Shown here: in pieces, positions 3,453 to 18,468 of the stretch
Numbering within the stretch: the first letter of the stretch is position 1
Layout of the letters: every line of letters begins with the position of its first letter
From: a virus
Lineage: Duplodnaviria > Heunggongvirae > Uroviricota > Caudoviricetes
Direction: 5' to 3' (one strand)
Length of the DNA stretch: 49,084 bases
Virus record (IMG/VR): IMGVR_UViG_2851982317_000003
Translations under genes and position numbers: made by a program
Notes under the pieces: model-generated
Databases searched by the model: none
What the model saw: the letters and a program-made list of their open reading frames with translations, nothing else
What the model was told of the DNA's origin: nothing

Positions 3453-4001
3453 TCACTCTCCTTTGATGCGAATGCCAGCGTCAGACATCATATGCAGATA
3501 CTCACCTGCATCCTGAACCCATTGACCTCCAACCCCGTAATAGCGATGCGTAATGATGTCGATAGTTACTAACGGGTCTTGTTCGATTAACTGCCGCAGA
3601 AACTCTTCCAGGTCACCAGTGCAGTGCTTGATAACAGGAGTCTTCCCAGGATGGCGAACAACAAGAAACTGGTTTCCGTCTTCACGGACTTCGTTGCTTT
3701 CCAGTTTAGCAATACGCTTACTCCCATCCGAGATAACACCTTCGTAATACTCACGCTGCTCGTTGAGTTTTGATTTTGCTGTTTCAAGCTCAACACGCAG
3801 TTTCCCTACTGTTAGCGCAATATCCTCGTTCTCCTGGTCGCGGCGTTTGATGTATTGCTGGTTTCTTTCCCGTTCATCCAGCAGTTCCAGCACAATCGAT
3901 GGTGTTACCAATTCATGGAAAAGGTCTGCGTCAAATCCCCAGTCGTCATGCATTGCCTGCTCTGCCGCTTCACGCAGTGCCTGAGAGTTAATTTCGCTCA
4001 C
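3453..4001 (-). CDS. ea22: Lambda Ea22-like protein
   Basis: 182-aa ORF in the lambda ea22 position; length matches. Confidence 0.8.
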   Translation of the reverse strand: MSEINSQALREAAEQAMHDDWGFDADLFHELVTPSIVLELLDERERNQQYIKRRDQENEDIALTVGKLRVELETAKSKLNEQREYYEGVISDGSKRIAKLESNEVREDGNQFLVVRHPGKTPVIKHCTGDLEEFLRQLIEQDPLVTIDIITHRYYGVGGQWVQDAGEYLHMMSDAGIRIKGE

Positions 4002-4219
4002 TTCGAACCTCTCTGTTTACTGATAAGTTCCAGATCCTCCTGGCAACTTGCACAAGTCCGACAACCCTGAACGGCCAAGCGTCTTCGTTCATCTATCGGA
4101 TCGCCACACTCACAACAATGAGTGGCAGATATAGCCTGGTGGTTCAGGCGGCGCATTTTTATTGCTGTGTTGCGCTGTAATTCTTCAATTTCTGATGCTG
4201 AATCAATGATGTCTGCCAT
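3998..4219 (-). CDS. orf73: TraR/DksA-type C4 zinc-finger protein (lambda Orf73-like)
   Basis: 73-aa ORF with CxxC...CxxC motif (CCECGDPIDERRRLAVQGCRTCASCQ). Confidence 0.8.
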   Translation of the reverse strand: MADIIDSASEIEELQRNTAIKMRRLNHQAISATHCCECGDPIDERRRLAVQGCRTCASCQEDLELISKQRGSK

Positions 4220-4272
4220 CTTTCATTAATCCCTGAATTGTTGGTTAATACGCTTGAGGGTGAATGCGAATA

Positions 4273-4295
4273 ATAAAAAAGGAGCCTGTAGCTCC
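4273..4295 (-). terminator. Candidate intrinsic terminator within the early-left operon
   Basis: Plus-strand AAAAAAGGAGCCTGTAGCTCC reads on the minus strand as a GGAGC/GCTCC hairpin followed by TTTTTT. Confidence 0.4.
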
Positions 4296-4317
4296 ATGAT
4301 GATTTTGTTTTTCATGC

Positions 4318-4533
4318 TCACCGTTCCTTAAAGACGCCGTTTAACATGCCGATCGCCAGGCTTAAATGAGTCGGTGTGAATCCCATCAGCGTTACCGTTT
4401 CGCGGTGCTTCTTCAGTACGCTACGGCAAATGTCATCGACGTTTTTATCCGGAAACTGCTGTCTGGCTTTTTTGATTTCAGAATTAGCCTGACGGGCAAT
4501 GCTGCGAAGGGCGTTTTCCTGCTGAGGTGTCAT
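4318..4533 (-). CDS. Lambda orf61-region small protein (start taken at internal Met MTPQQENAL; ORF extends to 4599)
   Basis: ORF in the lambda orf61 position; start choice uncertain. Confidence 0.6.
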   Translation of the reverse strand: MTPQQENALRSIARQANSEIKKARQQFPDKNVDDICRSVLKKHRETVTLMGFTPTHLSLAIGMLNGVFKER

Positions 4534-4609
4534 TGAACAAGTCCCATGTCGGCAAGCATAAGCACACAGAATATGAAGCCCGCTGCCAGAAAAATGCATT
4601 CAGTGGTTG

Positions 4610-4801
4610 TCATACCTGGTCTCTCTCATCTGCTTCTGCTTTCGCCACCATCATTTCCAGCTTTTGTGAAAGGGATGCGGCTAACGTGTGAAATTCTTCG
4701 TCTGTTTCTACTGGTATTGGCACAAACCTGACTCCAATTTGAGCGAGGCTATGTGCCATCTCGATACTCGTTCTTAACTCAACGGGAGATGCTTTGTGCA
4801 T
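4610..4801 (-). CDS. orf63: Lambda Orf63-like protein
   Basis: 63-aa ORF ([23 protein letters not shown]...) in the lambda orf63 position. Confidence 0.8.
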   Translation of the reverse strand: MHKASPVELRTSIEMAHSLAQIGVRFVPIPVETDEEFHTLAASLSQKLEMMVAKAEADERDQV

Positions 4802-4962
4802 ACAGCTCCCCGTTTATTATTTATCTCCTCAGCCAGCCGCTGTGCTTTCAGGGGATTTCGGATAACAGAAAGGCCGGGAAATACCCAGCCTCGCTTCGTA
4901 ACGGAGTAGACGAAAGTGATCGTGCCTACGCGGATATTATCGTGAGGATGTTTCATCGCCAT
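4774..4962 (-). CDS. orf60a: Lambda Orf60a-like protein
   Basis: 62-aa ORF just upstream of exo on the minus strand. Confidence 0.7.
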
Positions 4963-5633
4963 TGCTCCCCAAATACAAAACCAATTTCAGCCAGTGCCTC
5001 GTCCATTTTTTCGATGAACTCCGGCACCATCTCGTCAAAACTCGCCATGTACTTTTCATCCCGCTCAACCACGACATAATGCAGTCCTTCACGCTTCATA
5101 CGCGGGTCATAGTTGGCAAAGTACCAGGCATCTTTTCGCGTCACCCACATGCTGTACTGCACCTGGGCCATGTAAGCCGACTTTATGGCCTCGAAACCAC
5201 CGAGCCGGAACTTCATGAAATCCCGGGAGGTAAACGGGCATTTCAGCTCAAGGCCATTGCCGTCACTGCATAAACCATCGGGAGAGCAGGCGGTACGCAT
5301 ACTTTCGTCGCGATAGATGATCGGGGATTCAGTAACATTCACGCCGGAAGTGAATTCAAACAGAGTTCTGGCGTCGTTCTCGTACTGTTTTCCCCATGCC
5401 AGCGCCTTAGCATTAACTTCCGGAGCCACACCGGTGCAAACCTCAGCCAGCAGGGTGTGGAAGTAGGACATTTTCATGTCAGGCCACTTTTTTCCGGAGC
5501 GGGGTTTTGCTATCACATTGTGAACTTCTGAAGCGGTGATGACGCCGAGCCGTAATTTGTGCCACGCATCATCCCCCTGTTCGACAGCTCTCACGTCGAT
5601 TCCGGTACGCTGCAGGATAATGTCCGGTGTCAT
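4953..5633 (-). CDS. exo: Lambda exonuclease (Red-alpha)
   Basis: 226-aa ORF ([43 protein letters not shown]...). Confidence 0.97.
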
Positions 5634-6415
5634 GCAGCCACCTTCTGCTCAGTGGCTTTCTGTTTCAGGAATCCAAGAGCTTTCACTGCTTCGGCCTGTG
5701 TCAGTTCTGACGATGCGCGAATGTCGCGGCGAAATATCTGGGAACAGAGCGGCAATAAGTCGTCATCCCATGTTTTATCCAGGGCAATCAGCAGAGTGTT
5801 AATCTCCTGCATGGTTTCATCGTTAACCGGAGTGATGTCGCGTTCCGGCTGACGTTCTGCAGTGTATGCGGTATTTTCGACAATGCGCTCGGCTTCATCC
5901 TTGTCATAGATACCAGCAAATCCGAAGGCGAGACGGGCACACTGAATCATGGCTTTATGCCGTAACATCCGTTTGGGATGCGACTGCCACGGCCCCGTGA
6001 TTTCTCTGCCTTCGCGGGTTTTGAATGGTTCGCGGCGGCATTCATCCATCCACTCGGTAACGCAGATCGGATGATTGCGGTCTTTGCGGTAAATCCGGCA
6101 TGTGCAGGATTCGTTGTCCTGTTCAAAGTCCATGCCGTCAAACTGCTGGTTTTCGTTGATGATGCGGGACCAGCCATCAACGCCCACCACCGGAACGATG
6201 CCGTTCTGCTTATCAGGGAAGGCGTAAATTTCTTTCGTCCACGGATTAAGACCGTACTGGTTGGCGACGATCAGCAATGCGATGAACTGCGCATCGCTGG
6301 CATCACCTTTAAATGCCGTCTGGCGAAGAGTGGTGATCAGTTCCTGTGGGTCGACAGAATCCATGCCGACTCGTTCAGCCAGCTTCCCAGCCAGCGTTGC
6401 GAGTGCTGTACTCAT
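5630..6415 (-). CDS. bet: Bet single-strand annealing protein (Red-beta)
   Basis: 261-aa ORF ([37 protein letters not shown]...); overlaps exo start. Confidence 0.97.
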
Positions 6416-6420
6416 CCGTT

Positions 6421-6717
6421 TTATACCTCTGAATCAATATCAACCTGGTGGTGAGCAATGGTTTCAACCATGTACCGGATGTGTTCTGCCATGCGCTCCT
6501 GAAACTCAACATCGTCATCAAACGCACGGGTAATGGCTTTTTTGCTGGCCCCGTGGCGTTGCAAATGATCGATGCATAGCGATTCAAACAGGTGCTGGGG
6601 CAGGCCTTTTTCCATGTCGTCTGCCAGTTCTGCCTCTTTCTCTTCACGGGCGATCTGCTGGTAGTGACGCACCCAGCTCTGAGCCTCAAGACGATCCTGA
6701 ATGTAATAAGCGTTCAT
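6421..6717 (-). CDS. gam: Gam, RecBCD inhibitor (98-aa GamS-length form)
   Basis: [56 protein letters not shown]... Confidence 0.95.
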
Positions 6718-6792
6718 GGCTGAACTCCTGAAAATGGCTGTGAAAATATCGCCCGCGAAATGCCAGGCTGATTAGAAAAACAGGAAAGGGGA

Positions 6793-6999
6793 TTAGTGAT
6801 TCAGGCCGTTGCCGCGTCCGTCGAGAAAAACTTCCACGAGCAAGTCACGGGTATAAGTGCGCTCGATGCCGCGATGCAGATAAAGCCGTCCGCGTAAATT
6901 AGCTGATGCAGTCCAGGTACCATCTTTGTGTTTGACCAGCATTCCTGGCATGACCGCACCGCGATTAACGGTCTGCGTTCCGTAATGTTGATGAACCAT
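6793..6999 (-). CDS. kil: Kil-family host cell-division inhibitor (KilR-like), start at internal Met with AGGAG RBS
   Basis: 68-aa reading MVHQHYGTQTVNRGAVMPGMLVKHKDGTWTASANLRGRLYLHRG...VFLDGRG with KilR-like pattern (H..GT...PG..V.H...T..ASAN...LY...VFLGRDG); kil position next to gam. Confidence 0.6.
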   Translation of the reverse strand: MVHQHYGTQTVNRGAVMPGMLVKHKDGTWTASANLRGRLYLHRGIERTYTRDLLVEVFLDGRGNGLNH

Positions 7000-7259
7000 A
7001 AAAACTCCTGCCCGTAAGCTGGGCTGCTGAACATATAAAGACTTCTGCGCGTATTCAGGCGGTGGATGGCCGCCGGTTGTCATAACTAAGCCGCCTCGTT
7101 GAAGCGACTGAGGTATGAAGTGTTGAGTTGATTTCAGCTGGTCACACCGACGTTCACGCGTCCGCTTCACCCCTCGCACTCCCCGGAGCCTGCTGAAATT
7201 CAAGCTGCGGATCTAAGCGGTCATCGCAACGGTGAATCAGGTGATTGCCGTATCGTTGT

Positions 7260-7400
7260 GTTGTTGCGACATGGTGATAATAGCTATTGCTATTGATGAT
7301 ATCAATACTTATTGCTATTGATAGATGTGTTTTGATATTAAATATTTGATAGCAAAAAGAATTAATTTTGTGACTTGCATCGCATAGCGATAACTGAAGC
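7260..7400 (-). promoter_or_regulatory. Candidate OL/pL operator-promoter region (leftward early promoter)
   Basis: AT-rich block with repeated TTGCTATTG / TATTGAT motifs and an ATTGATGATATCAAT inverted repeat; the same words recur in the cI-cro intergenic region. Confidence 0.45.
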
Positions 7401-7444
7401 GGGGTTGTGGTGGTTTTTTGAACGGTGTGTGTGATGAGGGGAGG

Positions 7445-7472
7445 TAAAAGAAAACCCGGCACGGTGGCCGGG
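7445..7472 (-). terminator. Intrinsic terminator downstream of the DUF4411 gene (hairpin CCCGGC-ACGGTG-GCCGGG, U-run on minus strand; plausibly bidirectional)
   Basis: Perfect 6-bp GC stem with T-rich tracts on both sides, immediately after the stop of the 7478-7990 gene. Confidence 0.6.
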
Positions 7473-7477
7473 ACGTT

Positions 7478-7990
7478 TTATTTCAAAGAAAAATTATGAC
7501 TAGCGTATCTTGGAAGAAATTCATATAGTGTTAATGTCTTAACGCCGTGAGAAGCAGCAGCATCCGGGATCATTATTCTTTTTTTAGGTTTGCCACCGGA
7601 TGGTTTCTCATGGGTAATAATAGTATATCCATGTGTCATCGCATGGGCTATTAAAAAAGCATCTGCTTTTTCATGGCTTGCAAAATCAAACTTTGCCTTT
7701 TCGGTAACATCTAATTTAGTTGACCAATTTATTAACTTTGCATAATTTTCTATTGAACTATGCTCATCTTCGAAGAATGATGATGGTAACTCTTCTTTAA
7801 TCCATTTACACAATGGATCATCTTTTGCACATAGTTCTTTTTTTACAGCATTAATGCTATAAATCAGACCATTAATGTGTAAAGCGAGAAGAAAATCCCA
7901 AAATATTTTGCAATAATTGAAGTTATATGCAAAGTTTTTTGCCTCTATGAAGACATTACTATCAATTAAGAATTTTCCATTATGAATCAT
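7478..7990 (-). CDS. DUF4411-family (PIN-like fold) protein; second gene of the cI-proximal accessory cassette
   Basis: 170-aa ORF (MIHNGKFLIDSNVFIEAKNF...); start overlaps the stop of the upstream peptidase gene (ATGA), i.e. translationally coupled. Confidence 0.65.
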   Translation of the reverse strand: MIHNGKFLIDSNVFIEAKNFAYNFNYCKIFWDFLLALHINGLIYSINAVKKELCAKDDPLCKWIKEELPSSFFEDEHSSIENYAKLINWSTKLDVTEKAKFDFASHEKADAFLIAHAMTHGYTIITHEKPSGGKPKKRIMIPDAAASHGVKTLTLYEFLPRYASHNFSLK

Positions 7991-8581
7991 AGAGATTCTC
8001 GTTTTTTATAAAATTCAACAACTGTATCTGCTTTTACATTTAGCAGTACGCCTGCTTCCCTTAATGGTAATTGTTGAGACATTGCTTTGGAAATTATTAT
8101 ATTCGTAAGTTTTGGACTGTTGCGAACAGGTAATGTGTTAAAGAAAGAACCACCATTAGATTCTTTTTTGGGCTTATTGTAAGCTTGATCTTTAATTATC
8201 TCCAAAGTGTTTCTTTCTATCAAATCTAATTGTAACGCTTTGATTGCACAAGCGAAATCACTAACCTTAAATAACTTAGAAACCTCTTTTACTCGATAAT
8301 AATTATTATCGCTGGATGCATTAAGCCAGAAAGATTTGAAGAGATTATCAGGCATTAAGATTTCAGCAGCAACTTTATTACAAAAAGATTCTATGTTTTT
8401 TTCTGTGTCCCACCCAGAGACTCCATCGACTCCAAGCCAAAGATGAGCCACCTCATGAAATAATGTAAATACCTGCGCAGATAACGCGTCCGAGCTATTT
8501 ACAAAAATGATCGGAGCAACGCTATCAGATATACAGAAACCACGAAACTCTCGCGTGTCAAGTTTTCTTTTATTATTATTA

Positions 8582-8590
8582 CCCACAACA
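8582..8590. repeat. IS1 target-site duplication, left copy (CCCACAACA)
   Basis: 9-bp direct repeat abutting the IS1 left terminus. Confidence 0.9.
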
Positions 8591-8645
8591 GGTGATGCTG
8601 CCAACTTACTGATTTAGTGTATGATGGTGTTTTTGAGGTGCTCCA

Positions 8646-8921
8646 GTGGCTTCCATTTCCATCAGATGTCCTTCCTGCTCCGCTACTGAAGGCGTGGTGC
8701 GTAACGGCAAAAGCACTGCCGGACATCAGCGCTATCTCTGCTCTCACTGCCGTAAAACATGGCAACTGCAGTTCACTTACACCGCTTCTCAACCCGGTAC
8801 GCACCAGAAAATCATTGATATGGCCATGAATGGCGTTGGATGCCGGGCAACAGCCCGCATTATGGGCATTGGCCTCAACACGATTTTACGTCACTTAAAA
8901 AACTCAGGCCGCAGTCGGTAA
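8646..8921 (+). CDS. insA: IS1 InsA
   Basis: 91-aa [46 protein letters not shown]... Confidence 0.95.
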
Positions 8922-9343
8922 CCTCGCGCATACAGCCGGGCAGTGACGTCATCGTCTGCGCGGAAATGGACGAACAGTGGGGCTATGTCGGGGCTAAATC
9001 GCGCCAGCGCTGGCTGTTTTACGCGTATGACAGGCTCCGGAAGACGGTTGTTGCGCACGTATTCGGTGAACGCACTATGGCGACGCTGGGGCGTCTTATG
9101 AGCCTGCTGTCACCCTTTGACGTGGTGATATGGATGACGGATGGCTGGCCGCTGTATGAATCCCGCCTGAAGGGAAAGCTGCACGTAATCAGCAAGCGAT
9201 ATACGCAGCGAATTGAGCGGCATAACCTGAATCTGAGGCAGCACCTGGCACGGCTGGGACGGAAGTCGCTGTCGTTCTCAAAATCGGTGGAGCTGCATGA
9301 CAAAGTCATCGGGCATTATCTGAACATAAAACACTATCAATAA
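8840..9343 (+). CDS. insB: IS1 InsB (made as an InsAB' fusion by frameshifting)
   Basis: 167-aa ORF in the -1 frame overlapping insA. Confidence 0.9.
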
Positions 9344-9358
9344 GTTGGAGTCATTACC

Positions 9359-9367
9359 CCCACAACA
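9359..9367. repeat. IS1 target-site duplication, right copy (CCCACAACA)
   Basis: Identical 9-mer abutting the IS1 right terminus. Confidence 0.9.
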
Positions 9368-9934
9368 CCATTCTTGAAAACTAATACGCCAGTGTCTTCT
9401 ATTAGTTTTGCCACTTTAGAAAAATAGCTCTCAAAAGTGACATTTTTTATCTCTTTTTGTATATCAAAATGTATTGTGTTTGCTATGTCTGTAGCAACAA
9501 CCTTATAATTTAATTTTCTATTAAATTTAAATTTACCAATAAAATCGAGTGGATCATCATTACCATTTTCTCTTAAATAGTCTTTGTACCACTCAAGTTT
9601 ATATTCTATATCATAGTAAACATCAAAAAAATCTTTTCCTAACTCACGGCTATTTATAGCTTGCCTTAAGTCAGGGATCTTGGGTTTGGCTGGAGTTGGT
9701 GGCGTTTCAAGAAATAAAAAACCGAAAGGGATTCCTCCAATTTTTGCCAGTTTTTCTGCTGCGGATTTACTTACCACTCCGTTAAGAAATTTATTAATCT
9801 TTTTGGGCATGACTTGGTCAGCAAGAGTTTCGATAGAAACTCCTTGAGAATTTGCTATCCAATCAATCATCTTCCTAGACAATTGAAATTCAACCGCTGC
9901 CATGTTATCACCTAGTTAAAAAAACCTATTATTC

Positions 9935-9998
9935 AACAATTATTGTTGTGCACCTGATAGCTAACGTCAAGCCTAATTTATTGCCTTACTACAGTAAG
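9935..9998. promoter_or_regulatory. Two inverted repeats in the promoter-proximal gap between cI and the peptidase gene: CAACAATTATTGTTG (9935-9949) and CTTACTACAGTAAG (9985-9998)
   Basis: Perfect 7-1-7 and 6-2-6 palindromes in the 129-bp intergenic region; candidate operator sites. Confidence 0.35.
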
Positions 9999-10032
9999 CT
10001 GAAAAGCGAAGTGCATAATTTTGTTCTGATTT

Positions 10033-10761
10033 CTACCCATGCTTTCTATATGTCTGCGGCATGCTCCCGATGACTTTCCCGAAGATGAACACGCGGTTCA
10101 TCTCGTCTTTCTCGATCGGGTCCCACGGTGAGTAGCTCTTGTTATCAGAGATAACCAGCAGCTTATCCTTCATCATTTGCAGGCGTTTTACATGGGCGGT
10201 GTCGTCATACAGAAACGCATAGATACCATCACCGTCGAAAGATTTAACCGTGATATCAACGAACAGCAGATCACCTGGTTCGATCGTTCCTGACATGCTG
10301 TCACCACGCACGTTAATGATGCGGATATTTTCCGCCTTCCTGCCATCGAACATGTGACGAGCATCGTCAAACGAGTATTCAACCGAGCGTAGAACTTCTA
10401 CAAACTCACGGTTGATTACACCCGGCCCGGCACTGACTTCTATATCAAGAACGTCAATTTTGAAGTATTTGGAATGGCTGATAGCAGGCTTCCCTGATTG
10501 TTGACCGTCATTTCTCATCGGGCCTATGCCTGAAGAGAGCCATTCTGTTCGAACACCCAATGCATTAGCTATTTCAACAATTTTTGTTGAGCCGCGCGCG
10601 TTGCCGCTTGTCAGTCTCCAGATTGTGGGTTGAGCTACGCCAGACGCCTTTGCAAGAGCGCCTTGAGACATTCCAGATTGTTCCATCGCTAGATTTAAGC
10701 GATCAGCAAGAGTTTCTTTTTTCATAAGTTTTAATTTATACGCTTGCGTATTGATGGTCAA
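10033..10761 (-). CDS. cI: CI-type prophage repressor (N-terminal HTH + C-terminal LexA-like S24 self-cleaving domain); true start probably the internal Met MKKETLAD
   Basis: HTH (QGALAKASGVAQPTIWRL) and S24 motif (VRGDSMSGTIEPGDLLFVD...VKRL); divergent from the cro-like gene. Confidence 0.85.
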   Translation of the reverse strand: MTINTQAYKLKLMKKETLADRLNLAMEQSGMSQGALAKASGVAQPTIWRLTSGNARGSTKIVEIANALGVRTEWLSSGIGPMRNDGQQSGKPAISHSKYFKIDVLDIEVSAGPGVINREFVEVLRSVEYSFDDARHMFDGRKAENIRIINVRGDSMSGTIEPGDLLFVDITVKSFDGDGIYAFLYDDTAHVKRLQMMKDKLLVISDNKSYSPWDPIEKDEMNRVFIFGKVIGSMPQTYRKHG

Positions 10762-10829
10762 AACACGTTTTGCTATTGCTTGGATTAATACGCATTGCTA
10801 TTATTCATTCATTGCAATACCAATAGGAA
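10735..10829. promoter_or_regulatory. OR / pRM-pR divergent operator-promoter region
   Basis: Intergenic region between divergent cI and cro-like genes; palindrome ATACGCTTGCGTAT (10738-10751) and TTGCTATTG motifs. Confidence 0.55.
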
Positions 10830-11063
10830 TTGATAATGACAAATCAAACCATTCAACTCGCAATCAGTATTACAGGTAGTCAAAAACGACTGGCAGATCT
10901 ATGCGGTGTAGCCCAACCCACAGTTTGGCGTTGGCTACACGGTGGCGGAATTGATGCCCGCTATGTAATGAAAATTGTCTCAGCCACTGGTGGAAAGATT
11001 AAACCAGCAGATATTCGTCCCGACCTCGCACCATTGTTTAACGCGAGTAATTCTGCCGCCTAA
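10830..11063 (+). CDS. Cro-like / YdaS-like HTH regulator
   Basis: 77-aa HTH protein (QKRLADLCGVAQPTVWRWL) divergent from cI. Confidence 0.7.
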   Translation: MIMTNQTIQLAISITGSQKRLADLCGVAQPTVWRWLHGGGIDARYVMKIVSATGGKIKPADIRPDLAPLFNASNSAA

Positions 11064-11087
11064 ACTGCGGCGTTAACTGATAAGGCA

Positions 11088-11633
11088 ATGACTATGCAAC
11101 CACTTACATACCAACAGACTAGCGGATTTAGCCCGACTGCGGTGATAAATCGTTCTCAAACAAAACAGGTGCCAGGCCACGAAAAAATCCGTGATGCCGT
11201 CCGCGCCTGGTCGGCTGCAGATAATCAGGATGTTGTTGCCGCACTCATTGTGAATGAGTATCGGGAGCAGGGCGGCGGCACCATCGATTTCCCTGATGAT
11301 GTCAGCCGTGCACGCCAGAAGCTGTTCCGCTTCCTCGATAACAAATTCGATTCTGAAAAATACCGAAATAACGTGCGTGAACTGACCCCGGCAATTCTGG
11401 CGGTACTACCGCTGGAATATCGCGGTTACCTGGTTGAGCAGGATAGCTTCATGACTCGGTTGGCTGAAATGGAAAAGGAACTCAGTGAGGCAAAACAGGC
11501 TGTCATTCTCAACGCACCACGCCACCAGAAACTGAAGGAGATGAGTGAAGGTATTGTGTCGATGTTTCGTGTGGACCCGGATCTGGCTGGTCCATTGATG
11601 GCGATGGTTACCACCATGTTGGGGGCAATATGA
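11088..11633 (+). CDS. YdaT-like protein in the cII position
   Basis: 181-aa ORF with YdaT-like motifs (EYREQGGGTIDFP, LTPAILAVLPLEYR). Confidence 0.6.
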   Translation: MTMQPLTYQQTSGFSPTAVINRSQTKQVPGHEKIRDAVRAWSAADNQDVVAALIVNEYREQGGGTIDFPDDVSRARQKLFRFLDNKFDSEKYRNNVRELTPAILAVLPLEYRGYLVEQDSFMTRLAEMEKELSEAKQAVILNAPRHQKLKEMSEGIVSMFRVDPDLAGPLMAMVTTMLGAI

Positions 11634-11719
11634 CAGGTTTAAAAATGGCGAAAGTCGGTCTGCGGGAACAGAACCGACTTTCAGGTGCAAATCGTAACAC
11701 ACTCATTGCGGGAGGAATT

Positions 11720-12649
11720 ATGGCAAACACTGCTGAGATATTCAATTTTCCTGTGCCGGATGCGGCACAAAAGGAGCCGCGCGTGGCAGATCTCGATGAT
11801 GGTTATACGCGCATTGCAAATGAGTTGCTGGAAGCTGTAATGCTGGCCGGATTAACACAGCACCAGCTTCTGGTCTTCCTGGCTGTCATGCGCAAAACAT
11901 ATGGCTTTAATAAAAAACTGGATTGGGTGAGCAACGAGCAACTTTCCGAGTTGACCGGGATATTGCCGCACAAGTGTTCTGCTGCAAAAAGTGTTCTGGT
12001 AAAGCGTGGGATTTTTATTCAGAGCGGGCGGAATATAGGCATTAATAATGTGGTCAGTGAATGGTCAACATTACCCGAATCAGGTAAGAAAAATAAAGTT
12101 TACCTGAAAGAGGTAAATTTACCTGAATCAGGTAAGAAAAGTTTACCCAAATCAGGTAAAGGCACTTACCCGAATCAGGTAAACACAAAAGACAAACTAA
12201 CAAAAGACAATATAAAACCTTATTCGTCCGAGAATTCTGGCGAATCCTCTGACCTGCCAGAAAACGACCTTCCTGTGGTGAAAGCGGATGCTGCGATTCA
12301 GAACGGCAGCAAGTGGGGGACAGCAGAAGACCTGACCGCCGCAGAGTGGATGTTTGACATGGTGAAGACCATCGCGCCATCAGCCAGAAAACCGAATTTT
12401 GCAGGGTGGGCTAACGATATCCGTCTGATGCGTGAACGTGATGGACGTAACCACCGCGACATGTGTGTACTGTTCCGCTGGGCCTGCCAGGACAACTTCT
12501 GGTCCGGTAACGTGCTGAGTCCGGCCAAACTCCGCGACAAGTGGACCCAGCTCGAAATCAACCGAAACAAGCAACAGGCTGGCGTGACAGCCGGCAAACC
12601 AAAACTCGACCTGACAAACACAGACTGGATTTACGGGGTGGATCTATGA
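11720..12649 (+). CDS. O: Replication initiator O (non-lambda N-terminal iteron-binding domain, lambda-like C-terminal domain)
   Basis: ATG with GGAGG RBS; ori iterons inside the gene; C-terminus lambda O-like; stop overlaps the P start (ATGA). Confidence 0.85.
   Translation: MANTAEIFNFPVPDAAQKEPRVADLDDGYTRIANELLEAVMLAGLTQHQLLVFLAVMRKTYGFNKKLDWVSNEQLSELTGILPHKCSAAKSVLVKRGIFIQSGRNIGINNVVSEWSTLPESGKKNKVYLKEVNLPESGKKSLPKSGKGTYPNQVNTKDKLTKDNIKPYSSENSGESSDLPENDLPVVKADAAIQNGSKWGTAEDLTAAEWMFDMVKTIAPSARKPNFAGWANDIRLMRERDGRNHRDMCVLFRWACQDNFWSGNVLSPAKLRDKWTQLEINRNKQQAGVTAGKPKLDLTNTDWIYGVDL
12071..12183. repeat. ori iterons: five ~18-bp inverted-repeat units (TTACCCGAATCAGGTAAG and variants) followed by an A-rich tract
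   Basis: Units at about 12071, 12100, 12119, 12143 and 12166, then AAACACAAAAGACAAACTAACAAAAGACAATATAAAACC. Confidence 0.85.
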
Positions 12650-13347
12650 AAAACATCGCCGCACAGATGATTAACTTTGACCGTGAGCAGATGCGCCGGA
12701 TCGCCAACAACATGCCGGAACAGTACGACGAAAAGCCGCAGGTACAGCAGGTAGCGCAGATCATCAACGGTGTATTCAGCCAGTTGCTGGCAACTTTCCC
12801 TGCGAGCCTGGCTAACCGTGACCAGAACGAACTGAACGAAATTCGCCGCCAGTGGGTTCTGGCTTTCCGGGAAAACGGGATCACCACAATGGAACAGGTT
12901 AACGCTGGAATGCGCGTAGCCCGTCGGCAGAATCGACCATTCCTGCCATCACCCGGGCAGTTTGTCGCCTGGTGCCGGGAAGAAGCATCCGTTACCGCCG
13001 GGCTGCCAAACGCCAGCGAGCTGGTTGATATGGTTTACGAGTATTGCCGGAAGCGCGGGCTGTATCCGGATGCAGAGTCTTATCCGTGGAAATCAAACGC
13101 GCACTACTGGCTGGTTACCAACCTGTATCAGAACATGCGGGCCAATGCGTTGACTGACTCGGAATTACGGCGCAAGGCTGCCGATGAACTTGCCCATATG
13201 ACTGCGAGAATTAACCGTGGTGAGGCTATACCTGAACCAGTAAAACAACTTCCTGTCATGGGCGGTAGACCTCTAAATCGTGCACAGGCTCTGACGAAGA
13301 TTGCAGAAATCAAAGCTAAGTTCGGACTGAAAGGAGCCAGTGTATGA
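12646..13347 (+). CDS. P: Replication protein P (DnaB helicase loader)
   Basis: 233-aa reading from MKNIAAQMINFDREQMRRIANNMPEQYDEKPQVQQ..., lambda P-like. Confidence 0.95.
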   Translation: MKNIAAQMINFDREQMRRIANNMPEQYDEKPQVQQVAQIINGVFSQLLATFPASLANRDQNELNEIRRQWVLAFRENGITTMEQVNAGMRVARRQNRPFLPSPGQFVAWCREEASVTAGLPNASELVDMVYEYCRKRGLYPDAESYPWKSNAHYWLVTNLYQNMRANALTDSELRRKAADELAHMTARINRGEAIPEPVKQLPVMGGRPLNRAQALTKIAEIKAKFGLKGASV

Positions 13348-13637
13348 CGGGAAAAGAAGCAATTATTCATTACCTGGGGACGCATAAGAGCTTCTGTGCG
13401 CAGGACGTTGCTGCGGTAACAGGCGCAACAGTAACCAGCATAAATCAGGCTGCGGCTAAAATGGCGCGGACAGGAATCTTAGTTATTGATGGTAAGGTCT
13501 GGCGAACGGTGTATTACCGGTTCGCTACCAAGGAAGAACGGGAAGGAAAGGTGAGCACGAATCTGATTTTCAAGGAGTGTCGCCAGAGTGCCGCGATGAA
13601 GCGGGTGTTGGCATTTTATCGCGGCAATTTTCAATAG
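13344..13637 (+). CDS. ren: Ren
   Basis: 97-aa ORF overlapping the P stop (ATGA); lambda Ren-like. Confidence 0.9.
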   Translation: MTGKEAIIHYLGTHKSFCAQDVAAVTGATVTSINQAAAKMARTGILVIDGKVWRTVYYRFATKEEREGKVSTNLIFKECRQSAAMKRVLAFYRGNFQ

Positions 13638-13674
13638 ACTATGTACATAAAAATATCATTTTTTTAATACATGT

Positions 13675-13881
13675 CTAATTATTGGACGAAATTGGTTTTT
13701 GCTTTGGTTTAGTTAGCCTAGCAATCAAGCCAGAGGCAATAATGATGATCCAAGCAATTTGATGCAATGCTACTCCAATATAAGAACCTTTATAGATAAT
13801 AAAGGCATAGATCGCTAGAAACGAAATAAATATCCATAACGAAAGTTGATAAATTTTGGCGCGCATATTTAATCCAATCAA
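13675..13881 (-). CDS. Small hydrophobic two-TM membrane protein (hypothetical)
   Basis: 68-aa ORF in an AT-rich tract; two hydrophobic segments. Confidence 0.35.
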   Translation of the reverse strand: MIGLNMRAKIYQLSLWIFISFLAIYAFIIYKGSYIGVALHQIAWIIIIASGLIARLTKPKQKPISSNN

Positions 13882-14122
13882 TCAGAAAGACGAGTAATCA
13901 TAGAGGTACTATCACCCGGGTAACTATTGCTATTATGAACGGATAGGATAGAGGCTTCAATAACATATGCATCAAGTATGATGGAATATGTAGATGAAAA
14001 TGACTTGTGTCAAATTTGTGGAAATGAGTACCATGTTTCTCTGAAATTGATGTCGTTAATGGCTAGTGATAGTGAACTTTTTTACTTTATAATTCCTTTG
14101 GTTATAACAATAAGGTAAATTT

Positions 14123-14683
14123 ATGAAGAAGATAATATTATTAGCCATGATTATTGGTTCTTTAACAGGTTGCGCTAGTGTGCCACCATTGAATTTTTCA
14201 ACACCTAACGTGGGAGTTAGCCAGAAAAAAATAGATGCTGAAATTAAGTCATTAACGGTATCACTTGCTCGTCCAGATGAGCAGAAAGGGGATATCACTG
14301 CTGGTATGGAGGCTATAACTCCAATTTGGCGTGAATCTTTGCAGGAAGCACTCGACCGAATGACTATTTTTCGTGATAGTTCACCAAATACGGTTAGCTT
14401 AAATGTTAAAGTGTTGGCTCTTGACGTTCCTGCTTTTGGTGTTTCAATGACAACTAAAGCAATTGCAAGGTATGAAATAATCAACCGTGCGAATGGTGAT
14501 ATTATATATACGCAGGATATTGAGTCTACCGGTACTGTTCCAGCCAGTTACGCATTCTACGGTATTGTTCGAGCACGCGAATCTGTTAATCGCGCGGTGC
14601 AAAACAACATAACGCAGTTCTTGCAAGCATTAGAAAGTGTTGATCTTTCTCGTCCAATGTTTCCTGTTAGGGTAGCTAAATGA
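14123..14683 (+). CDS. Lipoprotein of unknown function (signal peptide + lipobox LTGC)
   Basis: 186-aa ORF MKKIILLAMIIGSLTGCAS...; good RBS; in AT-rich accessory DNA after ren. Confidence 0.7.
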   Translation: MKKIILLAMIIGSLTGCASVPPLNFSTPNVGVSQKKIDAEIKSLTVSLARPDEQKGDITAGMEAITPIWRESLQEALDRMTIFRDSSPNTVSLNVKVLALDVPAFGVSMTTKAIARYEIINRANGDIIYTQDIESTGTVPASYAFYGIVRARESVNRAVQNNITQFLQALESVDLSRPMFPVRVAK

Positions 14684-15132
14684 AGCGATTATTCGTAATT
14701 GCTCCACTCTTAGTGTTGGTTGGATGCGCACAAAATATATCGCCAAATAATTATTCTGTTGGCTCTGTGGGCATGGTTAATCGAACTATCGCTGGTACAG
14801 TTATTAGTGCCAGGGGGGTTGATATCAGTGGGACTTCCGCGTTAGGCGGGACTGCTGGGGCTGCCGTGGGGGCAACCGCTGGTTCTGCGCTTGGTGGGGG
14901 AGTTCGTTCTAATATCGTTGGTGCCGTTGGTGGTGCAGTCATTGGTGGTATTGCCGGGGCAGCAATCGAATCTTCAGTAACAAAACAAACAGGCATGGAA
15001 TATGTTGTCGAAACTGAGAATGGGAATTTAATGACCATTGTTCAAGGCAAAGATCCGTTATTTACTCAAGGAAGTAAGGTCCTTGTTTTATACGGAAACT
15101 CTTCTCGCATAATAACAGACCCGCGTCACTAA
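14680..15132 (+). CDS. SlyB-like glycine-zipper outer-membrane lipoprotein
   Basis: 150-aa ORF with lipobox (LVGCAQ) and Gly-zipper (GGTAGAAVGATAGSALGGGV...GAVGGAVIGGIAGAAI); start overlaps the upstream stop (ATGA). Confidence 0.7.
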   Translation: MKRLFVIAPLLVLVGCAQNISPNNYSVGSVGMVNRTIAGTVISARGVDISGTSALGGTAGAAVGATAGSALGGGVRSNIVGAVGGAVIGGIAGAAIESSVTKQTGMEYVVETENGNLMTIVQGKDPLFTQGSKVLVLYGNSSRIITDPRH

Positions 15133-15322
15133 CATACCTTTTGATTTTGTAAAATCAATTCGTAATAATAAAGTCATCGGAGCTTGAACAACTCCGGTGA
15201 CTTCTGCGCTAAACGGGGACGTTTATGCGCACATACAATCCAAACTCTCTTCTCCCTTCACAGATGCAGAAATGCACCTGCGATTTTTTGCATCCAGCGT
15301 CTGACCTCTGCGGAGGTGAAGC

Positions 15323-15778
15323 GTGAACCTACCACAAGATGGCATCAAACTGCATCGCGGTAACTTCACCGCTATCGGCCAGCAGATCCAGCCTTATCTG
15401 GAGGACGGAAAATGCTTTCGCATGGTGCTTAAACCGTGGCGTGAGAAACGCAGTCTTTCCCAGAATGCACTCAGCCACATGTGGTACAGCGAAATCAGTG
15501 AATACCTCATCAGCAGGGGGAAATCGTTCGCTACCGCAGCATGGGTAAAAGATGCTCTCAAACACACATACCTCGGTTATGAAACCAAGGACCTGGTTGA
15601 TGTCGTAACCGGCGAAATCACTACTATCCAGTCGTTACGCCATACTTCCGATCTTGATACCGGAGAGATGTATGTCTTCCTGTGTAAGGTTGAAGCCTGG
15701 GCGATGAATATTGGCTGCCACCTGACTATTCCGCAGAGCTGCGAGTTCCAGCTGCTGCGCGACAAGCAGGAGGCGTAA
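15323..15778 (+). CDS. ybcN: YbcN-like nin-region protein (DLP12 ybcN homolog)
   Basis: 151-aa [58 protein letters not shown]... Confidence 0.75.
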
Positions 15779-15948
15779 TGGCTACACCGCTTATTCGTGT
15801 CATGAACGGACACATCTACAGAGTACCAAATCGTCGTAAGCGTAAGCCTGAGCTGAAGCCATCCGAAATACCAACACTGCTCGGATATACCGCTAGCCTG
15901 GTTGATAAAAAATGGTTGCGACTGGCAGCAAGGAGGAATCATGGCTGA
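15778..15948 (+). CDS. ninE: NinE-like small protein (56 aa), not in the supplied ORF track
   Basis: ATG overlapping the ybcN stop (TAATG); [37 protein letters not shown]... Confidence 0.6.
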   Translation: MATPLIRVMNGHIYRVPNRRKRKPELKPSEIPTLLGYTASLVDKKWLRLAARRNHG

Positions 15949-16231
15949 TTTGAGAAAAGCAGCGCGTGGTCGGGAATGCCAGGTAAGAATCACTGGCGTA
16001 TGTAATGGCAACCCTGAAACGTCTGTACTGGCACATATCCGGCTGGCTGGATTGTGCGGCACCGGTATTAAACCGCCAGACCTTATTGCCACCATTGCCT
16101 GTTCTGCCTGTCACGACGAAATCGACCGCCGCACGCATTTTGTCGATGCTGAGTACGCAAAAGAATGCGCGCTGGAAGGTATGGCGAGAACGCAGGTTAT
16201 CTGGCTGAAAGAGGGGGTAATCAAGGCGTGA
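15941..16231 (+). CDS. ybcO: YbcO-like (DUF1364) nin-region protein; start taken at [10 protein letters not shown]
   Basis: Cys/His-rich protein ([11 protein letters not shown]...[11 protein letters not shown]) as in DLP12 ybcO. Confidence 0.8.
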
Positions 16232-16590
16232 ATACTTACCACATCACACTACCCTGGCCTCCGAGCAATAACCGCTATTACCGCCATAATCGCGGGCGCA
16301 CACACATCAGCGCAGAAGGGCAGGCATACCGCGATAACGTCACCCGAATCATTAAAAACGCAATGCTGGATATCGGCCTGGCTATGCCAGTGAAAATCCG
16401 TATTGAGTGCCACATGCCGGATCGCCGTCGCCGTGACCTGGATAATCTGCAAAAGGCCGCTTTTGACGCACTCACCAAAGCAGGTTTCTGGCTGGATGAT
16501 GCTCAGGTCGTTGATTACCGCGTTGTGAAGATGCCTGTTACCAAAGGTGGGAGGCTGGAACTGACCATCACCAAAATGGGGAATGAATGA
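16228..16590 (+). CDS. rusA: RusA Holliday-junction resolvase (GTG start overlapping the ybcO stop)
   Basis: 120-aa reading [37 protein letters not shown]... Confidence 0.9.
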
Positions 16591-16727
16591 TGTTTGAGTC
16601 TTATATGGCAGAGCGTCTTCGCCGCCGCTGGGTGCGCCTGCGCTTATATCGTTTTCCTGGTTCTGTTTTGACCGATTACCGGATACTGAAGAATTACGCC
16701 AAAACCCTGACAGGAGCAGGAGTATGA
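16587..16727 (+). CDS. ylcG: YlcG-like small protein (46 aa), not in the supplied ORF track
   Basis: ATGATG start overlapping the rusA stop; [25 protein letters not shown]... Confidence 0.5.
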
Positions 16728-16812
16728 AGTCAGAGATAACAATCAACTAATACTATTTTGTTGATTTTTGCTTGTAATTGGCGTTCTGGTCTGATTTTTG
16801 TGGAGTAAGTTG

Positions 16813-17196
16813 ATGCGTGATATTCAGATGGTTCTTGAGCGTTGGGGAGCGTGGGCGGCTAATAATCATGAAGATGTGACCTGGTCGTCCATTGCCGCCG
16901 GTTTTAAGGGATTAATTACTTCAAAAGTAAAATCTCGCCCGCAATGTTGTGACGATGACGCGATGATCATTTGCGGGTGCATGGCCCGTCTGAAAAAGAA
17001 CAACAGCGATTTGCACGATTTATTAGTAGATTATTATGTAGTCGGTATGACATTCATGTCACTGGCAGGTAAGCATTGCTGCTCTGATGGTTATATCGGG
17101 AAAAGGTTACAGAAGGCTGAGGGTATAATTGAAGGGATGTTAATGGCATTAGATATCCGGTTAGAGATGGATATCGTTGTTAATAACTCTAATTAA
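16813..17196 (+). CDS. quuD: Late-gene antiterminator Q (DLP12 QuuD / phage-21-82 type)
   Basis: 127-aa reading [33 protein letters not shown]...[16 protein letters not shown]. Confidence 0.85.
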
Positions 17197-17204
17197 TATG
17201 CCAG

Positions 17205-17260
17205 TTGTTTACTAAAAGTTATTAAAAATGGGGCGTTGCAACGCCCCCAAAAATAAAGGG
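17205..17260 (+). promoter_or_regulatory. Candidate pR'/qut region containing a perfect 18-bp palindrome GGGGCGTTGCAACGCCCC (17230-17247)
   Basis: Immediately downstream of Q, where lambdoid phages carry pR' and the Q-utilisation site. Confidence 0.35.
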
Positions 17261-17335
17261 TAATATATAACAGAAGGTTTATATAGTTAGAAGCAAGGTT
17301 GTGCTCCTAAAGGAAGTGGCTTGAGGGAGCCACTT

Positions 17336-17377
17336 ATATGTTGGGGAGGCAAAGCCTCCCGCAACATATCTTTTTCG
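17336..17377 (+). terminator. Strong intrinsic terminator, candidate tR' (15-bp stem ATATGTTGGGGAGGC / GCCTCCC-G-CAACATAT followed by CTTTTT)
   Basis: Long GC-rich hairpin plus T-run about 140 nt downstream of Q, consistent with a short 6S-like late leader. Confidence 0.55.
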
Positions 17378-17385
17378 TAATCAGA

Positions 17386-18468
17386 TTAGAACTGATACAC
17401 CAGACCTACAGCGACGATGTCGTCGGTATCAATACCAGCTGTTTTGGTAAACTTACTATCGTCAATTAAGTTGATTTTGTAATCAACAAAAGTGGACATG
17501 TTTTTATTAAAGTAGTAAGTAGCACCGACATCGACATACTTGACTAAGTCTCGGTCACCATGAACACCAAGGTCTTTACCTTTTGACTGAAGGTAAGCAA
17601 CAGATGGTCGCAGACCGAAGTCAAACTGATATTGTGCTACTGCTTCAAAGTTTTGTGCTTTGTTTGCAATATGGTTATTACCAAAAACGGTCATATTCTG
17701 AGTTTCAGAATATGTGGTAGCCAGATAGATATTGTTCGCATCATATTTCAGGCCTGCAGCCCATACTTCCGCATTTTTGCCGGAGGCATTGAATTTGCTC
17801 TTACCATAGGCGACCTGACCGTCAGTGCGATCTGATTTAGCATAGGTTGCACCCACGCCGAATCCTTCATACTCATAAGTAGTGGAGAAACCGAAACCAT
17901 CACCATTGGCTTCAGTTACGTCAGTGCGGTCATTTTTACCCTGATACTGAGCAGCAAAGTTCAGGCCATCGACCAGACCAAAGAAGTCGTTGTTACGATA
18001 GGTTGCAACACCAGTGGTGCGACCAGTCATGAACACATCTGTTTGGGTCCAGGTATCGCCACCGAATTCTGGCAGAACGTCAGTCCACGCACCGATGTCG
18101 TATGCTACACCGTAGTTACGGCCGTAATCGATTGAGCCGTAGTCACCGAATTTCAGGCCTGCAAATGCAAGACGGGTTTTGTCTTTGGAGGAACCTTGAG
18201 ATTCAGCGCGGTTGCCTTTGAATTCATATTCCCACTGACCGAAACCAGTCAGTTGATCGTTGATTTGGGTTTCACCTTTGAAGCCAAGACGGGCATAAGT
18301 AGTATCACCATCATCTGCATCATTAGAGGAGAAGTAGTGCTTAGCATTAACTTTCCCGTACAGATCCAGCTTGTTACTGTCTTTATTATAAATTTCAGCT
18401 GCCTGAGCAGACATCGCCATCAGTACTGATGCAGCTACAGCAGAAATTGCCACTGTTAATTTTTTCAT
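17386..18468 (-). CDS. nmpC: OmpC-family trimeric porin, phage-borne (Lc / NmpC-like lysogenic-conversion gene)
   Basis: 360-aa ORF with signal peptide ([23 protein letters not shown]), AEIYNKD...C-terminal VYQF; between Q and holin in opposite orientation. Confidence 0.9.

Follow-up and report, generated by a model that had tools for sequence, protein, structure and literature searches.

The segment at 10033-11633 of the window (the whole stretch of viral DNA that was analysed, 49,084 nucleotides) is best explained as an intact switch between lysis and lysogeny, belonging to a lambda-related E. coli prophage of the Bievrevirus type, an assignment that we regard as very probable. It carries CI, Cro and CII, and represents the ordinary, already known switch of a common and previously sequenced group of lambda-like E. 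coli phages. The genes, protein families, catalytic residues, and operator and promoter sequences, and the near-identity to plaque-forming or inducible phage isolates, were established directly. The gene content given in a preliminary description of this DNA, namely a LexA-like (S24) CI, a YdaS-family HTH protein and a YdaT-family protein, was confirmed by Pfam search at the positions proposed, with small refinements.

CI, its operators and the adjoining cargo

The cI gene (10033-10725, minus strand) encodes 230 amino acids from an ATG start, as in the records of related phages; the longest open reading frame (10033-10761, minus strand) has a TTG start and 242 amino acids. Pfam assigned an N-terminal HTH domain (HTH_3, residues 25-75; E=1.5e-6, 28.6 bits against a cut-off of 23) and a C-terminal S24 autopeptidase domain (Peptidase_S24; E=1.5e-18). 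When aligned with CI of lambda, phi80 and ST104, the protein showed an Ala99-Gly100 cleavage site together with Ser143 and Lys180: Gly100, Ser143 and Lys180 were invariant, and corresponded to Gly112, Ser149 and Lys192 of lambda. Amino acid identity was 99.6% with CI of PhiR30_1, 97.8% with 4A7, 86% with ST104, 24.5% with lambda and 23% with phi80. For CI, PADLOC returned weak HTH matches only.

Sequence reading combined with pattern and matrix scans identified three operators in the OR region (10733-10804), with centres spaced 25 bp: OR3 (10738-10751; ATACGCTTGCGTAT), OR2 (10763-10776; ACACGTTTTGCTAT) and OR1 (10788-10801; ATACGCATTGCTAT). A candidate PRM (10761-10733, minus strand; TTGACC-17-TAAATT) was found by promoter scans, and a candidate PR (10776-10804, plus strand; TTGCTT-17-TATTAT) was read by eye, its sequence then being verified. 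This region was nearly identical in 4A7, PhiR30_1 and Salmonella phage ST104. A promoter scan also gave a candidate PL (7277-7318, minus strand), with the -35 element TTGATA at 7305-7300 and the -10 element TATTAT at 7282-7277. OL1 (7280-7293; ATAGCAATAGCTAT) and OL2 (7305-7318; ATAGCAATAAGTAT) lie here, and ranked 4 and 6 among ~49,000 window positions scored with a weight matrix made from OR1-3; a third OL operator is uncertain. Positions 7299-7369 were 79% identical to the DNA upstream of ST104 gene 24.

From these features, we infer which protein binds where, and likewise the targets of CII. CI would bind the 14-bp operators (ATA-N8-TAT), three at OR and two at OL; in the bound state it would close PR and PL and govern its own promoter PRM, the transcript of which would start at or beside the cI ATG. 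After DNA damage, activated RecA would lead CI to cut itself at Ala99-Gly100, and the prophage would be induced. Bacteriocins that activate RecA induce the Bievrevirus prophages 4C10 and 4A7 (bioRxiv 10.64898/2026.05.26.727859), and it is from these prophages, whose CI and Cro are 97.8% and 100% identical to those of the window, that RecA-stimulated self-cleavage leading to induction is indirectly carried over.

The block had been described as sandwiched between lambda modules; however, ~3.3 kb of non-lambda DNA separates gam from cI. In it lie PL/OL and a terminator, together with a kil of the phi80 type and two low-GC cargo genes, one of them broken by IS1. This cargo (34% GC; 7478-9903, minus strand) is inside the immunity region in the position of lambda rexAB. 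It comprises a DUF4411 gene (7478-7990, minus strand; Pfam E=1.2e-37), the product of which gave no hit in PADLOC, and an HTH + M78 (ImmA/IrrE) gene (7987-8590 and 9359-9903, minus strand; Peptidase_M78 E=2.5e-13), which is split by IS1 (8591-9358) with a 9-bp target duplication (CCCACAACA) and is uninterrupted (379 amino acids) in E. coli IAI1. A GC-rich, bidirectional hairpin terminator (7455-7472), which a terminator scan detected on both strands, ends the cI-cargo unit of leftward transcription and forms the left boundary of the cargo; homology to 4A7, PhiR30_1 and PhiR34_1 stops at 7472-7473, at this terminator. The IS1 in the neighbouring cargo gene, 130 bp from cI, could alter transcription read-through from PRM.

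An antitermination module of the N/nut type was also sought, and neither an N-family gene downstream of PL nor the boxB hairpins of nutL and nutR were found. Tblastn with lambda N, phi80 N, ST104 gp24 and HK022 Nun gave nothing significant (best E=0.13), the cro-cII gap is merely ~30 bp with no nutR/tR1, and the fold of a put-like RNA in the PL leader (7000-7275) was not significant (z=-0.89). A hairpin at the cro stop codon (11055-11071) was rejected as a nut site: it is common with phi80, yet unlike the core of the annotated phi80 nutL. Separately, an arginine-rich stretch (KRTRERR) in a long open reading frame upstream of Kil resembled the arginine-rich motif of N only at E=1.8.

The absence of a detectable N gene, and the presence of IS1 inside the immunity region, might be taken as signs that the switch is a decaying cryptic-prophage remnant that has lost its immunity function. 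This is very improbable: the sole gene broken by IS1 is the cargo HTH-M78 gene, the operators and promoters are intact, and the full-length cI, cro and cII match, at 98-100% identity, their counterparts in phages that form plaques or can be induced and that likewise lack N.

Cro and CII as members of the YdaS and YdaT families

The rightward genes had been described as YdaS- and YdaT-like "instead of" cro and cII; they proved to be Cro and CII themselves. The cro gene (10836-11063, plus strand) is divergent from cI, and the 110-bp gap to the cI start contains OR1-3. Its product, a small single-domain HTH protein of 75 amino acids, matched the YdaS family of Pfam (YdaS_toxin; E=1e-14, 54.5 bits against a cut-off of 30) and PHROG 35 "transcriptional repressor" (9.4e-24). 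Identity was 100% with Cro as annotated in 4A7 and PhiR30_1, 69% with that of ST104/BTP1 and 32% with Rac YdaS. Between the HTH regions of Cro and its own CI, there was 40% identity over 48 amino acids (E=2e-7), the recognition helices were alike (GVAQPTVWRW and GVAQPTIWRL, respectively), and the DNA behind this likeness was detected as an inverted repeat, I1. This HTH identity and the near-identical recognition helices suggest that Cro would bind the same operators as CI, lowering PRM and the early promoters.

The cII analogue (11094, or 11088, to 11633, plus strand; 179-181 amino acids) begins 30 bp past cro and ends 86 bp ahead of the probable start of O. The protein belongs to the YdaT family and is of the phi80-CII type: YdaT_toxin (E=4.9e-30, 104.3 bits against a cut-off of 21) was the only Pfam family matched, PHROG 163 "CII-like transcriptional activator" was matched at 2.4e-67, and identity was 98% with 4A7 CII, 67% with phi80 CII over the full length (180 amino acids) and 35% with Rac YdaT. 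In phmmer searches, CP-933P YdaT (PDB 8bt1) was matched at E=3.6e-4, 8bt1 and 3c4r both aligning at ~4e-4 over the N-terminal domain, while BLASTP gave no match between the YdaT-like protein and lambda CII or ST104 C1. An AlphaFold2 model was all-helical, but was computed from a single sequence and is unreliable (mean pLDDT of 39.7).

The equivalence of YdaS and YdaT to Cro and CII has already been published (PMC5917428, PMC8630535, PMC9986795). YdaT of CP-933P, a homologue of phi80 CII, is a non-toxic DNA-binding protein that activates a PRE-like promoter (PMC8630535, PMC9986795). As in phi80, the YdaT-family protein of the window would serve this phage type as its CII; it is probably an HTH activator that works as a tetramer, and would promote the establishment of repression. 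A lambda-style PRE (TTGC-N6-TTGC) and motifs common to the cro/cII junctions of the window, PhiR34_1 and phi80 were sought, with nothing convincing found; since PRE was not identified, CII is linked to cI by analogy only.

The family names themselves favour another reading, in which the two genes are a toxin-antitoxin pair beside a phage repressor and not Cro and CII: Pfam lists "Bacterial toxin YdaS" and "Bacterial toxin ydaT", RefSeq labels the gene "toxin YdaT domain-containing protein", and Rac YdaS/YdaT are toxic when ectopically expressed (cited in PMC5917428). This reading was largely refuted and retains very little probability, because the genes occupy the exact positions of cro and cII between OR and O, the first product resembles ST104 Cro and has an HTH in common with CI, the second resembles phi80 CII, the CP-933P homologue has the non-toxic, promoter-activating properties given above, and PADLOC gave no hits, the YdaT-like protein included.

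Just downstream of cII, a promoter scan gave a candidate oop/M3-like antisense RNA of ~70 nt (11637-11745, minus strand), with the promoter TTGAAT-17-CATAAT at 11745-11717. It contains a 14-bp hairpin (11650-11682) followed by GCCAUUUUU, has a folding energy of -24.6 kcal/mol (z=-3.65), and matches the annotated M3 RNA of phi80 in position and shape. Termination may be weak because GCCA parts the hairpin from the U-run. This RNA may counter CII. A search of Rfam over 4000-18000 (E<=1) returned two chance microRNA matches, and no oop, nut or thermosensor family.

Relatives and mosaic structure

The mosaic character relative to lambda, as originally proposed, was borne out. Lambda DNA homology is confined to 4900-6799 and 12183-13612: it ends at 6799, returns at 12183 inside O, and is absent from 6800-12182. 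The proposed lambda flanks were found on both sides, exo (4953-5633), bet (5630-6415) and gam (6421-6717) on the left and O, P (12646-13347) and ren (13344-13637) on the right, except that O resembles its lambda counterpart in DNA sequence over the C-terminal third only. O, the replication initiator (11720-12649, plus strand; 309 amino acids), probably starts at 11720 rather than 11630, as its start region (GGGAGGAATTATG) aligns with the starts of lambda O and phi80 gene 15. Its amino acid identity with lambda O was 66.7%, with nucleotide homology from 12183 onward only; the origin-binding part differs from that of lambda, as do five non-lambda ori iterons (TTACCYRAAWSAGGTAA) at 12071-12187 within O.

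The window and lambda have in common the order OL/PL, cargo, cI, three-operator OR, cro, cII, oop-like RNA and O, and a CI with HTH and S24 domains and the conserved Ser/Lys. On the other hand, the operator sequence is another one, nutR/tR1 and N are lacking, and Cro and CII have no detectable similarity to those of lambda. With a CI identity of 24.5%, no match for Cro and no nucleotide homology over 6800-12182, the region does not belong to imm-lambda.

The segments from exo to kil and from cI to ren were colinear, at 96-98% identity, with those of at least nine sequenced phages: 4A7, 4C10, Perceval, D2, 1W, 3W, PhiR30_1, PhiR68_2 and PhiR70_1. The region is thus colinear, neighbours included, with a known immunity type, the very outcome that the preliminary description had named as contradicting its reading, and the "hybrid" nature that the preliminary description had ascribed to this locus is not a peculiarity of it. 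Moreover, 716 of the 5,426 complete E. coli genomes hold at least 80% of the block. In the Bievrevirus-type phages 4A7, Lambda_4C10, Perceval and their relatives, the order exo-bet-gam-kil ... cI-cro-cII-O-P-ren is the same, and CI, Cro and CII are 97.8-99.6%, 100% and 95.5-98% identical to those of the window, respectively; the cargo downstream of ren is also common to PhiR30_1 and the window. The cargo between the PL terminator and cI differs: DUF4411 and HTH-M78 with IS1 in the window, an ASCH-domain gene and a hypothetical gene in 4A7, a transmembrane protein and a hypothetical gene in Perceval, and none in PhiR34_1.

The P22-like Salmonella phages ST104, BTP1, SE1 and ST160 resemble the window in CI (86%) and Cro (69%), and in nucleotide sequence over 10033-11023 (74% identity). 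Since the three OR operators and the PRM/PR hexamers of the ST104 group are almost identical to those of the window, repressor specificity is probably shared. ST104 differs in having a lambda/P22-type CII (c1, 93 amino acids), gene 24 (an N analogue) and P22-type replication genes, whereas in the window CII is of the YdaT type, O/P are lambda-like and N is absent. Phi80 resembles the window in CII, in kil (41%), in an oop/M3-like hairpin RNA in the same place, and in a conserved TTGAT-N8-ATCAA promoter upstream of ybcN/ninB; it differs in CI (23%), cro (gene 30), operators and iterons, and has N with nutL. In Rac (K-12) and CP-933P (O157:H7), YdaS and YdaT are of the same Pfam families and have the same placement relative to the repressor and replication genes, but are distant (32% and 35% for Rac YdaS and YdaT; E ~1e-4 for the PDB chains), and the repressors RacR and PaaR2 are without an S24 domain, in contrast to the LexA-like repressor of the window.

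Relative to lambda, the region is a mosaic in which cI-OR-cro is of the ST104/BTP1 type, cII and kil are of the phi80 type, and the ori has a specificity of its own; this mosaic is an established, widespread lineage and not a local event. Immunity is exchanged in this family as a ~500-bp cassette made up of cro, OR and the part of cI that encodes the N-terminal domain. The sharp breaks in lambda homology at 6799 and 12183, and the Pfam names common with Rac, could also have arisen if a lambda backbone had recently recombined, in this strain alone, with a cryptic prophage of the Rac/DLP12 kind, but sequence comparison refutes this by the identical junctions and neighbours in the independently isolated colinear phages and in the 716 complete genomes, by the absence of nucleotide similarity to Rac, the low identity of the Rac proteins, and the nearest sources being an ST104-type cI-cro and a phi80-type cII.

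Candidate CII boxes and the nin region

An exact TTGAT-N8-ATCAA palindrome at 10830-10847 (TTGATAATGACAAATCAA), across the cro start codon, is a candidate YdaT-type CII box. A second exact copy (15141-15158) overlaps the -35 element of a conserved promoter ~165 bp upstream of the nin genes. The two were the only exact copies in the 49-kb window, and shuffled sequences (n=100) contained 0.04 copies on average and one at most. This enrichment was limited to the exact 5+5 palindrome: the 12-base YdaT box with up to 3 mismatches was found 26 times against 26 expected. YdaT of Rac/CP-933P, a POU-like HTH protein, forms tetramers and binds TTGATT-N6-AATCAA, and the palindrome is similar to the boxes at which YdaT footprints were obtained in CP-933P and Rac (PMC9986795, PMC11879457).

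4A7 and Perceval have a weaker form of the cro-start box, and PhiR34_1, phi80 and ST104 have none. In the nin box, the half-sites were invariant and the spacer freely variable among eight diverse phages, seven of which have a YdaT-type CII, the eighth, phage 82, being represented by a partial record only. It is conceivable, though on balance doubtful, that the phi80/YdaT-type CII of this phage group acts through these candidate sites. If it does, commitment to lysogeny would include direct control by CII of the delayed-early nin-to-Q unit, in a lambda-like phage without N. In lambda, CII-activated antisense transcription (PaQ) serves instead.

The identification of the region as a known switch matters little beyond correct annotation, for which the database labels "toxin YdaS/YdaT" are a misnomer for the Cro and CII of a very common E. 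coli prophage family. Experimental work could prove worthwhile for one part only, the putative CII box at the conserved promoter of the nin region in phages without N.

Gene content and identity of CI, Cro and CII

The window was a lambdoid prophage of Escherichia coli, and was 100% identical to strain E2528-C1 (NZ_CP035870) across a 5-kb stretch around 10033-11633. From the ORF listing and the Pfam and PHROGs matches, exo (4953-5633), bet (5630-6415) and gam (6421-6717), a phi80-type kil (6793-6999) and cI (10033-10725) were assigned to the minus strand, and cro (10836-11063) and cII (11094-11633) to the plus strand, with P (12646-13347) to the right of O and ren (13344-13637) to the right of P. 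ORFs and Pfam matches thus placed the genes for CI, a YdaS-family protein and a YdaT-family protein where the preliminary description had located them.

CI (230 aa, with the ATG that records of related phages take as the start) contained an HTH_3 domain (Pfam, E=1.5e-6) followed by a Peptidase_S24 domain (E=1.5e-18), and was 86% identical to CI of the Salmonella P22-like phage ST104, but only 24.5% to lambda CI. Since G100 (Gly of the Ala-Gly cleavage site), Ser143 and Lys180 were invariant in the alignment with lambda, phi80 and ST104, the self-cleavage machinery appears intact. The gene in the cro position matched YdaS_toxin (54.5 bits; Pfam cut-off, 30), and its product showed 69% identity with Cro of ST104/BTP1, 100% with annotated Cro of 4A7 and PhiR30_1 (related coliphages) and 32% with YdaS of the cryptic prophage Rac. 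This protein and its own CI were 40% identical across the HTH, with nearly alike recognition helices (GVAQPTVWRW and GVAQPTIWRL, respectively), as would be expected for two proteins with common operators. The gene in the cII position matched YdaT_toxin (104 bits; Pfam cut-off, 21), and its product showed 67% identity with phi80 CII over the full length, 52-73% with annotated CII of mEp237, HK225, HK639 and CobraSix, and 35% with Rac YdaT; it also matched structure 8bt1 (YdaT of the cryptic prophage CP-933P; E=3.6e-4) and the PHROGs class "CII-like transcriptional activator" (2.4e-67). Phi80 CII is homologous to CP-933P YdaT, and YdaS and YdaT form no toxin-antitoxin pair, being equivalents of Cro and CII in certain lambdoid phages (PMC5917428; PMC8630535; PMC9986795; PMC11879457). 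Because of the identities with ST104 Cro and phi80 CII, together with this literature, the earlier reading that the two genes stood instead of cro and cII was wrong: they are cro and cII. A hairpin (GCCGC-CTAAACT-GCGGC; 11055-11071) overlapped the cro stop codon; it is kept in phi80 as GCCGC-CTAACCG-GCGGC, is absent from the related coliphage PhiR34_1, and bore no resemblance to the annotated phi80 nutL core.

Operators, cargo genes and the proposed switch

In the cI-cro gap, the 14-bp pattern ATA-N8-TAT occurred three times, at a centre-to-centre spacing of 25 bp: OR3 (10738-10751; perfect palindrome ATACGCTTGCGTAT), OR2 (10763-10776) and OR1 (10788-10801). A candidate PRM (TTGACC-17-TAAATT) enclosed OR3, with its predicted start at or beside the cI ATG, and the candidate PR was TTGCTT-17-TATTAT. 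The OR region was nearly identical among the window, 4A7, PhiR30_1 and ST104, which points to an immunity specificity shared with the ST104/BTP1 group. The best matches outside OR of a weight matrix built from OR1-3 (7280-7293 and 7305-7318) bracketed a leftward promoter (TTGATA-17-TATTAT), and were taken as putative OL1, OL2 and PL. By this placement, the strict immunity region would extend from ~7277 to 10804 and contain cargo genes, like rexAB in lambda.

This cargo, a low-GC (34%) pair at 7478-9903 between the PL-side terminator and cI, consisted of a DUF4411 gene (7478-7990) and an HTH + M78 peptidase (ImmA/IrrE) gene in the slot of lambda rexAB; relatives carry other genes, or none, there. 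The M78 part gave weak PADLOC matches to RmrA, CapP and PD-Lambda-2_B models, DUF4411 gave no PADLOC match, and a defensive or toxin-antitoxin-like role of the pair is possible. The HTH + M78 gene encodes 379 aa without interruption in E. coli IAI1 and is likewise intact in numerous further genomes; in the window, it was split by a complete IS1 (768 bp; 8591-9358) with a 9-bp target duplication (CCCACAACA; 8582-8590 and 9359-9367). This insertion fell within the immunity region, ~670 bp away from the stop codon of cI.

Most likely, CI at OR and OL would keep PR and PL off, Cro would compete with CI at the same operators, and the prophage would be induced via RecA-stimulated CI self-cleavage. 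RecA-activating bacteriocins induce prophages 4C10 and 4A7 (bioRxiv 10.64898/2026.05.26.727859), and 4A7 CI and Cro were 97.8% and 100% identical, respectively, to those of the window, which lends indirect experimental support to the induction step. Since no PRE was located when looked for, the step in which YdaT-type CII would promote the establishment of repression is drawn by analogy with phi80, CP-933P and Rac.

Candidate CII boxes, antisense RNA and the origin

The footprinted box of CP-933P and Rac YdaT is TTGATT-N6-AATCAA (PMC9986795; PMC11879457). Two exact copies of TTGAT-N8-ATCAA were found in the 49-kb window (shuffles: mean 0.04, never more than 1). The first (10830-10847), spanning the cro start codon, was weaker in 4A7 and was not preserved in phi80 or PhiR34_1. 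The second (TTGATTTTGTAAAATCAA; 15141-15158; counterparts at L001 13455, L006 10677 and L007 8048) matched the published box and overlapped the -35 of a conserved promoter (TTGATT-17-AATAAT) ~165 bp upstream of a ninB/ybcN-like gene. At this nin promoter, the half-sites TTTGAT and ATCAA were invariant in eight diverse phages (the window, 4A7, phage 82, HK639, HK225, KO-TP1, CobraSix and phi80), while the spacer differed in almost all; all seven with complete genomes encode a YdaT-type CII, phage 82 being a partial record. The phage 82 record annotates the promoter, and its "possible regulator-binding site" is a different inverted repeat. In a single contrast, the palindrome was missing from the equivalent promoter of a Klebsiella phage whose CII is of the lambda type. 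Shared ancestry of the phages compared could also account for this co-occurrence; from the sequences, we infer only that YdaT-type CII may bind these sites.

Downstream of cII, a candidate oop/M3-like antisense RNA of ~70 nt (11637-11745, minus strand) had the same layout as phi80 M3 RNA: as in lambda, the -10 of its leftward promoter (TTGAAT-17-CATAAT) overlapped the start codon of O. The RNA ended in a stable hairpin of 14 bp (z=-3.65) and had no match in Rfam. Phage and RefSeq records place the O start at 11630, overlapping cII; alignment with the start regions of lambda O and phi80 gene 15 instead gave 11720 as the most probable start. Five iterons (TTACCYRAAWSAGGTAA) within O (12071-12187) differed from those of lambda and phi80, and the last coincided with the return of lambda homology (12183). 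No N/Nun homologue or nut-like site was found between PL and kil (6999-7305), the cro-cII gap (11063-11094) was only ~30 bp, and N is likewise unannotated in the database records of 4A7, Perceval and PhiR30_1. A long ORF (6793-7203) contained, upstream of the methionine of Kil, an Arg-rich segment (GVKRTRERRCDQLK) whose resemblance to an arginine-rich motif was not significant (E=1.8). A low-GC insert after ren (13675-15132) carried a small membrane-protein ORF (minus strand), followed by two lipoprotein-like genes, one at 14123-14683 (annotated in PhiR30_1 as "acyltransferase") and one at 14680-15132 (annotated there as "outer membrane lipoprotein"). At this position, 4A7 and Perceval have emrE/qacE and genes for a serine recombinase and an esterase.

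Mosaicism and exchange of immunity

Nucleotide homology to lambda was limited to 4900-6799 (97%) and 12183-13612 (94%), and therefore the non-lambda block extended beyond 10033-11633, on the left over the cargo, PL/OL and kil, and on the right over the origin-binding part and iterons of O. Within it, cI-OR-cro was ST104-like (74% nucleotide identity; 10033-11023) and cII phi80-like (68.5%; 11054-11637). The proposed mosaicism relative to lambda thus held, with homology breaking at 6799 and 12183, but the supposed lambda O flank did not for the origin-binding part and iterons. The arrangement and its neighbours recurred at 96-98% identity in nine phages (4A7, Lambda_4C10, Perceval, D2, 1W, 3W, PhiR30_1, PhiR68_2 and PhiR70_1), of which Perceval, 4A7 and Lambda_4C10 belong to the genus Bievrevirus, and among complete E. 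coli genomes (n=5,426), 716 contained at least 80% of 10033-11633 and 2,224 at least part of it. Overall, the described gene content and mosaicism were confirmed, and the interpretation was partly supported: the region, neighbours included, is colinear with an immunity type already known from phages, which refutes a hybrid special to this locus, and it is an ordinary immunity region.

PhiR34_1 differed from the window only at 10590-11092, which covers OR, cro and the HTH-bearing N-terminal domain of cI and marks the boundaries of the swap. In those partially matching genomes that were sampled from the 2,224, the cI C-terminal domain and cII were kept, with another N-terminal domain of cI, another OR and another cro. 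Since both differ in one cassette, immunity specificity would be exchanged as a small unit; in this lineage, that unit seems to be the ~500-bp cassette of the cI N-terminal domain, OR and cro.
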